From the NCBI GenBank assembly GCA_964609155.1, contig CAZSRF010000007.1, positions 839 to 64,838 of the forward strand: DNA of 64,000 bases, read 5' to 3'. This DNA comes from an uncultured Gammaproteobacteria bacterium (GTDB lineage Bacteria > Pseudomonadota > Gammaproteobacteria > JAGOUU01). Of this stretch, positions 19,620-20,561 are shown in pieces. Under the pieces are notes generated by a model. The model made no database searches. It was not told the DNA's origin and was given only the letters and a program-made list of their open reading frames with translations. Numbering within the stretch: position 1 is the stretch's first letter; the number at the start of each line of letters is the position of its first letter. Both the position numbers and the translations under genes were made by a program.

Positions 19620-20348
19620 CTATATTGTATAAACATAACAAGGAGAAGTATTTGGCGGAACATGCCATGATACTTCTATCTGTACCGTAGATTCTTTCGT
19701 TAAATGAATTAAGTCTTCCATCCTGTGCGTACTCATTACTGCTCGTACATTGGGGCTGTTATTTACTTTACCTGCAATAATACTCATCAAATTAGGACCA
19801 AAACACGTAGCATTACAAAAAACCAAAGAAACCTTTCTGAAATCAAAATTGATAATATTGATGTTCTCAAATTCTATGGTTTGTGACTTATTACCCCTAT
19901 CATCAATAACACCTGGACACACACGTTCTAAAGCACTAAATGCCTCCAAAGCAACTTGATGCCTAGCACTATCTATTTCCACACCGTAGCTATTTTTCAT
20001 TTGATAAGATAAATAAGCCTCAAGCACCGTTTTACCTGCCACTGACCCCAAATCAACAAAGCTATCATCTTGAGAAACCTTTACAAACTCAAATAACTTA
20101 GCTAAGCCCTCAGGAAGAATTTCACCATAAGTAAGAAATATCTTTTGCTGCGCAAGAGTTGCATCTTCTCTACTTAAAGCCGAAGTATAACCCGAACGCT
20201 CTTTATAGAGAATATTAAAAATATCTTTAAGATCAGGAATGCTTATTAGGGAGTGGCAATCAATATTCAACGTTATCTCTTTATCTTCCATGTTCTCATT
20301 GAGCATATAATTTAAAAAGTCCCTTATGTAACTATAAAACTTTTTCAT
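19620..20348 (-). CDS. DOT1-like SAM-dependent lysine methyltransferase domain protein (eukaryotic-like)
   Basis: FVDLGSVAGKTVLEA matches DOT1 motif I (FVDLGSGVGQVV). Further matches are YGVE, DFRKVSLVFCNATCFGPNL (compare IFVNNFAFGPEV) and the pre-motif region YGEILPEGLAKLF...DDSFVDLGS (compare DOT1L EVYGETSFDLVAQMI...DDLFVDLGS). Confidence 0.6.
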   Translation of the reverse strand: MKKFYSYIRDFLNYMLNENMEDKEITLNIDCHSLISIPDLKDIFNILYKERSGYTSALSREDATLAQQKIFLTYGEILPEGLAKLFEFVKVSQDDSFVDLGSVAGKTVLEAYLSYQMKNSYGVEIDSARHQVALEAFSALERVCPGVIDDRGNKSQTIEFENINIINFDFRKVSLVFCNATCFGPNLMSIIAGKVNNSPNVRAVMSTHRMEDLIHLTKESTVQIEVSWHVPPNTSPCYVYTI

Positions 20349-20561
20349 AAGATAATATTTAATTTCCTATTTCAGATCTTAGGCCAACAAAGGTTAATAT
20401 TCAATGTATTAGATTATGGTACAGAGTATCTTTCTAAGAAAGTCCCTTATGTAACTATAAAACTTTTTCATAAGATAATATTTAATTTCCTATTTCAGAT
20501 CTTAGGCCAACAAAGGTTAATATTCAATGTATTAGATTATGGTACAGAGTATCTTTCTAAG
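20316..20561. repeat. Perfect 123-bp tandem duplication (2 copies), copy A including the start codon and first 10 codons of the DOT1-like gene
   Basis: Copy A spans 20316-20438 and copy B spans 20439-20561. They are identical by eye. Confidence 0.9.

Follow-up and report, generated by a model that had tools for sequence, protein, structure and literature searches.

In an uncultured gammaproteobacterium, the likely promoter region and start of a gene for a eukaryote-like DOT1-type methyltransferase appear twice in succession, as two 123-bp units that are identical to the last base. Does this repeat record a genuine and recent duplication in the genome or did assembly create it, and what would it do to the gene if genuine? 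We address both questions within the window (the whole stretch of DNA that was analysed, 64 kb in length) and against related sequences from public collections. On balance, and with confidence only a little better than even, we favour a real and very recent tandem duplication that took in the probable promoter region, the translation start, and the first 11 codons.

Structure and content of the repeat

Tandem Repeats Finder identified a repeat of period 123 at 20316-20561 (2.0 copies, 100% matches, 0 indels, score 492), and direct string comparison of its two head-to-tail units, copy A (20316-20438) and copy B (20439-20561), found zero mismatches. These two analyses agree with the earlier note, which had described a perfect tandem duplication of 2 × 123 bp at these positions; the divergence between copies that it allowed it might have overlooked does not appear in the string comparison. 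A run of 123 consecutive matches is beyond chance. The bases flanking the repeat mismatch (20315 A vs 20438 G; 20562 C vs 20439 A), so the repeat measures exactly 2 × 123 nt and has zero microhomology at its junction. This new junction lies between 20438 and 20439: with a slash marking the boundary, the minus strand reads ...AAGGGACTTT/CTTAGAAAG... and the plus strand, at 20427-20451, reads TATCTTTCTAAG/AAAGTCCCTTATG, giving the 25-mer TATCTTTCTAAGAAAGTCCCTTATG.

No further copy of the 123-nt unit was found in the 64 kb window (the best other blastn-short match was 13 nt), and in a Tandem Repeats Finder run over the whole window the duplication was the sole repeat of its kind. The contig is gap-free, with an N count of 0 across the window, and the G+C content of the intergenic stretch that holds the repeat is 26%. 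We considered a mobile element (a MITE, REP, or IS end) or a target-site duplication and rejected both, given that the 64 kb contain no other copies and that terminal inverted repeats are absent; target duplications made by IS elements (e.g., IS21) are also far shorter than 123 bp. Elsewhere in the window, at 4658-4820, lies a tandem repeat with a unit of 63 bp (2.6 copies at 92% identity; 21 aa, in frame), which sits within a 710-aa outer-membrane efflux (OEP/TolC-like) ORF at 4463..6595 on the minus strand.

The DOT1-like gene (19620..20348, minus strand) encodes 242 aa, matches Pfam PF08123, and has a start that is conserved in all homologues. Met1 of the protein is aligned and invariant in 10/10 homologues, indicating that the ATG at 20348..20346, inside copy A, is the true start; its counterpart in copy B lies at 20471..20469 (minus strand). 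Each 123-nt unit comprises 90 nt of upstream DNA followed by the ATG and 10 codons (MKKFYSYIRDF). Copy A, the proximal unit, runs into the full-length gene: 33 nt of it are coding (20348..20316), and the other 90 nt lie upstream of the gene (20349-20438). With Met1 invariant and 90 nt of upstream DNA in each unit, the duplication does span the start codon and the upstream region, as first described. The accompanying details also hold (an ATG and 10 codons in copy A, remade in copy B and followed by a frame that stops); the one point to clarify is that the minus strand encodes the gene.

Copy B, the distal unit, reproduces the 5′ end of the gene in truncated form: translation from its ATG yields a 20-aa ORF, MKKFYSYIRDFLRKILCTII, at 20409..20471 on the minus strand, ending in the stop codon TAA (20411..20409). 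Downstream of this stop, the proximal -35 hexamer follows at 4 nt and the main ATG at 60 nt. The length of the unit is divisible by 3, yet an N-terminal extension of the protein can be rejected, since the frame of the distal ATG stops after 20 codons. The 20-aa ORF, which bears no signs of coding selection, is a by-product of the copied gene start. In the unique spacer next to copy B is a 22-aa ORF, MKKYKSGSIWSFKLRKILCTII, at 20532-20600 (minus strand), which begins with MKKY, like the DOT1-like gene, and has its frame and stop in common with the distal ORF. In both copies, an AT-rich, weak inverted repeat (9 nt, 89% complementary, 11-nt loop) flanks the start codon, with arms at 20323-20331 and 20343-20351 in copy A and at 20446-20454 and 20466-20474 in copy B. 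It could pair the AUG in the mRNA, and the minimum-free-energy fold leaves it unused.

Each unit also holds a promoter-like site on the minus strand. The proximal site (20376..20404), as read from the sequence, consists of a -35 hexamer TTGAAT (20404..20399), a 17-nt spacer, and a -10 hexamer TAAGAT (20381..20376), the end of which is 27 nt upstream of the ATG, so that the pair stands at a usual distance from that codon. By copy identity, the same hexamers recur 123 nt upstream in the distal site (20499..20527; -35 at 20527..20522, -10 at 20504..20499). A consensus promoter scan with a threshold of 9/12 positions did not call TTGAAT-17-TAAGAT, which matches the consensus at 8/12. The nearest relative carries TTGAAC-17-TAAAAT at an equal distance from the ATG, so hexamers below the scan's call are conserved between the two genomes. 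DNA similarity to this relative spans 19301-20405 and ends at the upstream edge of the -35 hexamer, beyond which the relative has sequence of unrelated origin and an IS21 element. Retention of upstream DNA exactly as far as the -35 hexamer would fit a functional promoter. The earlier note had offered a second promoter and ribosome-binding site or, alternatively, a leader uORF. If the duplication is real, both halves of that statement describe what it encodes (a second candidate promoter, a ribosome start, and a short ORF), but the either/or does not hold: the uORF is the truncated 5′ end of the gene, copied together with its own start signals.

Relatives and the surrounding spacer

The comparison with related genomes yielded a uniform result. 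The closest relative, with a protein 80% identical and DNA 82% identical, is represented by four independent Logan assemblies (L001-L004), and a group at 63% identity with a 131-bp spacer between obg and the DOT1-like gene comprises L005, L010, and L012; L009 is a further distant locus. All relatives recovered (L001-L005, L009, L010, and L012) have a single start region; none of those compared (0) carries the duplication. This distribution indicates that one copy is the ancestral state and that the second is specific to the lineage of this genome. Scans of genome collections and of metagenomes returned relatives at ≤64% identity only, none of them from the same species.

Gene order at the locus is conserved as well. 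In the window, obg (20677..21693, minus strand; a GTPase gene whose close homologues carry the Pfam GTP1_OBG domain) precedes the DOT1-like gene and shares its strand, and rpsT (19315..19590, plus strand; ribosomal protein S20) is convergent with it. The order obg, DOT1-like gene, (other genes), rpsT is kept in all relatives recovered, which makes the DOT1-like gene a stable resident of the clade and not a strain-specific accessory gene. The earlier note's description of it as accessory was, therefore, overstated, given that the arrangement is conserved across several related uncultured Gammaproteobacteria.

What lies between these genes varies. In the closest relative, a PP2C phosphatase gene follows obg, and IS21 (istA/istB) and an rve-type gene precede the DOT1-like gene; in more distant relatives, a gene for a eukaryote-type protein kinase lies between the DOT1-like gene and rpsT. 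Judged from the regions compared (window 20562-20676; L001 1-4079; L006 6018-8721; L005 5733-8107), the spacer around the DOT1-like gene is a hot spot of rearrangement in the clade. In the window, a terminator-like hairpin at 19600-19619 separates rpsT from the DOT1-like gene. No terminator-like site was found between obg and the DOT1-like gene, and read-through from obg is accordingly possible. The spacer that separates copy B from the obg stop codon (20562..20676, minus strand) is unique sequence. The MKKY start of its 22-aa ORF raised the idea of an older, decayed third copy, which was rejected: shuffled sequences reached the same alignment score in 6-9% of cases, and other 115-mers from the window did so in 10-18%.

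Origin of the second copy

Sequence from the same strain in a second data set could bear directly on the repeat. Ten proteins of the window were looked up, and with one exception they occur on a single NCBI contig of 65,312 bp only. The exception came from Logan run SRR12404947, in which a 998-bp contig (L018) is 100% identical to window 22806-23803, indicating that the same strain is present in an independent public run. Contigs for this organism in SRR12404947 are about 1 kb long, and searches for exact matches to the DOT1-like protein, its cluster representative P0001, and Obg returned no contig on record. A k=31 graph that broke at the repeat boundary should yield a 241-aa product (with the coding sequence cut at 20345); this was likewise not on record, which with contigs so short favours neither reading. 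The protein search contained no 100%-identical DOT1-like fragment, and a literature search with the run and assembly accessions found nothing.

The explanations listed in the earlier note (a very recent duplication, a copy-number-variable module, or an assembly artefact) are the right set to weigh. The strongest challenge to a real duplication is that the genome has one true copy, and that contig ends or a gap-fill overlapping by 123 nt were abutted untrimmed, or the assembler passed through a graph loop one time too many; we regard this as rather unlikely, though it has several observations on its side. Identity of 100%, exactly 2.0 copies, and the lack of junction microhomology are what a mis-joined contig overlap gives, and false duplications at contig joins share with our repeat the two identical adjacent copies, the blunt junction, and the absence of support from relatives, every one of which has one copy. 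The repeat is known from one NCBI contig, with no second assembly of the strain to confirm it, and it sits in an intergenic setting of 26% G+C; short-read coverage often falls in low-G+C stretches. A second singleton oddity, the substitution Gly103Val, occurs 300 nt away in the same gene and could hint at locally poor sequence quality. The unit length also equals k-1 for k = 124, the largest k of IDBA-UD, though this is only a coincidence; against it, 123 does not match the common final k values (55, 77, 99, 127, and 141). The assembly process itself supplies further counterarguments. In plain de Bruijn-graph assembly, a junction must be present in reads before it can appear in a contig, a point in favour of a real event: standard graph assemblers make up no k-mers at junctions, and a perfect overlap of 123 nt would be noticed by mergers that take overlaps into account. 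False duplications at contig joins or closed gaps usually adjoin gaps or recur with the overlap length of the assembler, whereas the window is free of N and scaffold gaps and has only one such repeat in 64 kb, which speaks against a systematic joining error. An exact duplicate, conserved hexamers, single-copy relatives, and a plastic spacer together count for a real duplication, and its blunt junction and zero divergence would place the event within the recent history of the strain.

A real duplication need not be fixed, and copy number within the population could be variable. In a stronger version of this idea, alleles with one, two, or more copies are mixed in the population, the promoter module is unstable, and the assembler reported one copy number among several. 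Perfect tandem repeats of such size are quickly gained or lost via recombination or slippage; the source appears to have been assembled from mixed DNA, with relatives that are all MAGs or contigs from metagenomes or host genomes; and a graph loop would leave the copy number unfixed. No relative shows a repeat at this site, however, and the 123-nt unit lacks the short-unit structure typical of phase-variable repeats, and so we consider such heterogeneity improbable. We give far less credence to a regulatory leader, in which translation of the 20-aa peptide or the structure of a long 5′ leader would control expression of the DOT1-like gene. The uORF inherits a start region identical to that of the gene, and its stop is placed 60 nt ahead of the main ATG; but neither the unit (z = +1.26) nor the leader that begins at the predicted distal start site (z = +1.37) folds more stably than shuffled versions, Rfam reported nothing at the gathering score in the window (with a chance-level snoRNA match, E 0.24, in the region), and the interval from the uORF to the gene has no terminator-like site. 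The peptide is, moreover, absent from all relatives, which would have left no time for selection. On the same fold and Rfam results, a structured RNA or riboswitch in the unit or in the long leader can be rejected, and the combination that marks a leader-peptide or uORF element (a conserved ORF together with RNA structure or a terminator) is not present.

Possible effects on a DOT1-like methyltransferase with an altered SAM motif

If the duplication is real, as we favour, two identical modules, each with a candidate promoter and a start, would stand in tandem ahead of the gene at a spacing of 123 nt. The intact gene would be driven by the proximal module as before, while transcripts from the distal one would begin about 123 nt further upstream. 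Ribosomes on these longer transcripts would first translate the truncated 20-aa peptide, as a by-product of the copying, and the intact gene, with start signals of its own, would follow 60 nt past the peptide stop. Overall, transcription would be expected to rise modestly, by no more than about two-fold with additive promoters. We infer from the hexamers that they serve as a promoter and that both copies fire; the raised expression that the duplicated promoter would bring is predicted on the same footing.

Small duplications in regulatory regions are documented in bacteria: in Staphylococcus aureus, a 36-bp duplication upstream of pbp4 raises PBP4 levels (PMC9769611). Like the duplication described here, the pbp4 repeat is short, perfect, and tandem, lies directly upstream of one gene, is recent in its lineage, and has been proposed to increase expression (PMC9769611). 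The effects of the pbp4 duplication on transcript, protein, and phenotype were measured (PMC9769611). Our unit differs in taking in the start codon and 10 codons, which creates a truncated ORF.

The protein whose expression might be altered is a DOT1 family member by descent. It matches the Pfam DOT1 profile PF08123 over residues 54-207 (E 2.4e-14; 53.8 bits against a cutoff of 23), and its matches in the PDB include LpDot1, yeast Dot1, and human DOT1L, the best among solved structures being 9NE1 (LpDot1; E 6.7e-11, residues 41-230). Its activity is in doubt, judging from SAM motif I. In the window protein, the motif DxGxGxG is not intact but reads D99-L-G-S-V103-A-G105 (DLGSVAGK): codon 103 (20042..20040, minus strand) is GTG, encoding Val, where the nearest relative has GGG. 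Gly occupies this column in 155/158 homologues, and Val is found in the window protein only. LpDot1 (Legionella pneumophila lpp3025; PDB 9NE1), a secreted DOT1-like lysine methyltransferase, is likewise short, gammaproteobacterial, and composed of the catalytic domain only (bioRxiv 10.64898/2026.01.11.698932). In that enzyme, the motif is needed for SAM binding and catalysis, and G96R/G98R yields a dead enzyme (bioRxiv 10.64898/2026.01.11.698932). Similarity between the two proteins is only distant, and the motif reads DLGSGTGK in LpDot1 versus DLGSVAGK here. Gly103Val may represent a real hypomorphic or inactive allele, or it may be a base error. General decay of the gene was considered and rejected: its count of singleton deviations, 2 in a comparison of 10 close homologues, does not exceed that of its relatives.

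Two oddities in one gene invite the thought that they are connected. The duplication could be both real and adaptive, with the doubled module selected since it compensates by dosage for an enzyme crippled by Gly103Val, or with copy number varying between cells and thereby tuning the dose of a host-directed, eukaryote-like effector; we hold this combined reading to be very unlikely, and the link between the duplication and Gly103Val as dosage compensation, in particular, to be conceivable but unsupported. A precedent for such pairing exists in Aspergillus fumigatus, in which cyp51A alleles combine promoter tandem repeats with coding substitutions (TR34/L98H and TR46/Y121F/T289A). There, too, a promoter duplication and an amino-acid change affect one gene, but the organism is a eukaryote under azole selection, and the repeat is a duplicated transcription-factor site. 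Unlike the cyp51A substitutions, Gly103Val is more likely to be damaging than adaptive.

Under the favoured reading, a real and recent duplication, a regulatory mutation would have been caught very soon after it arose, in a gammaproteobacterium that is uncultured and probably host-associated. The gene that it affects encodes a eukaryote-like methyltransferase of the DOT1 type, and the counterpart of this enzyme in Legionella is a secreted virulence factor. Even so, such a duplication would add at most one more case of expression change by promoter duplication; if the repeat is an artefact, it matters solely as an assembly correction. Whether a recent lineage-specific duplication or a local assembly error, the event is of a known kind, and the understanding of such systems is unchanged. 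The locus also flags the strain for an unusual substitution in the cofactor motif of the enzyme.

Other genes in the window share the eukaryotic flavour of the DOT1-like gene. A gene with a papain-family C1 peptidase domain (14855-15943, minus strand; E 1.5e-07) and a gene for a DUF155/RMND1 protein (41145-41969, minus strand; E 7.6e-48) both have mainly eukaryotic affinities, and together with the DOT1-like gene they suggest, from their sequence relationships, a host-associated lifestyle. Base composition varies along the same stretch, with a G+C content of 28.6-28.7% at 40001-42000 and 46001-48000 versus about 33-35% elsewhere in the window.
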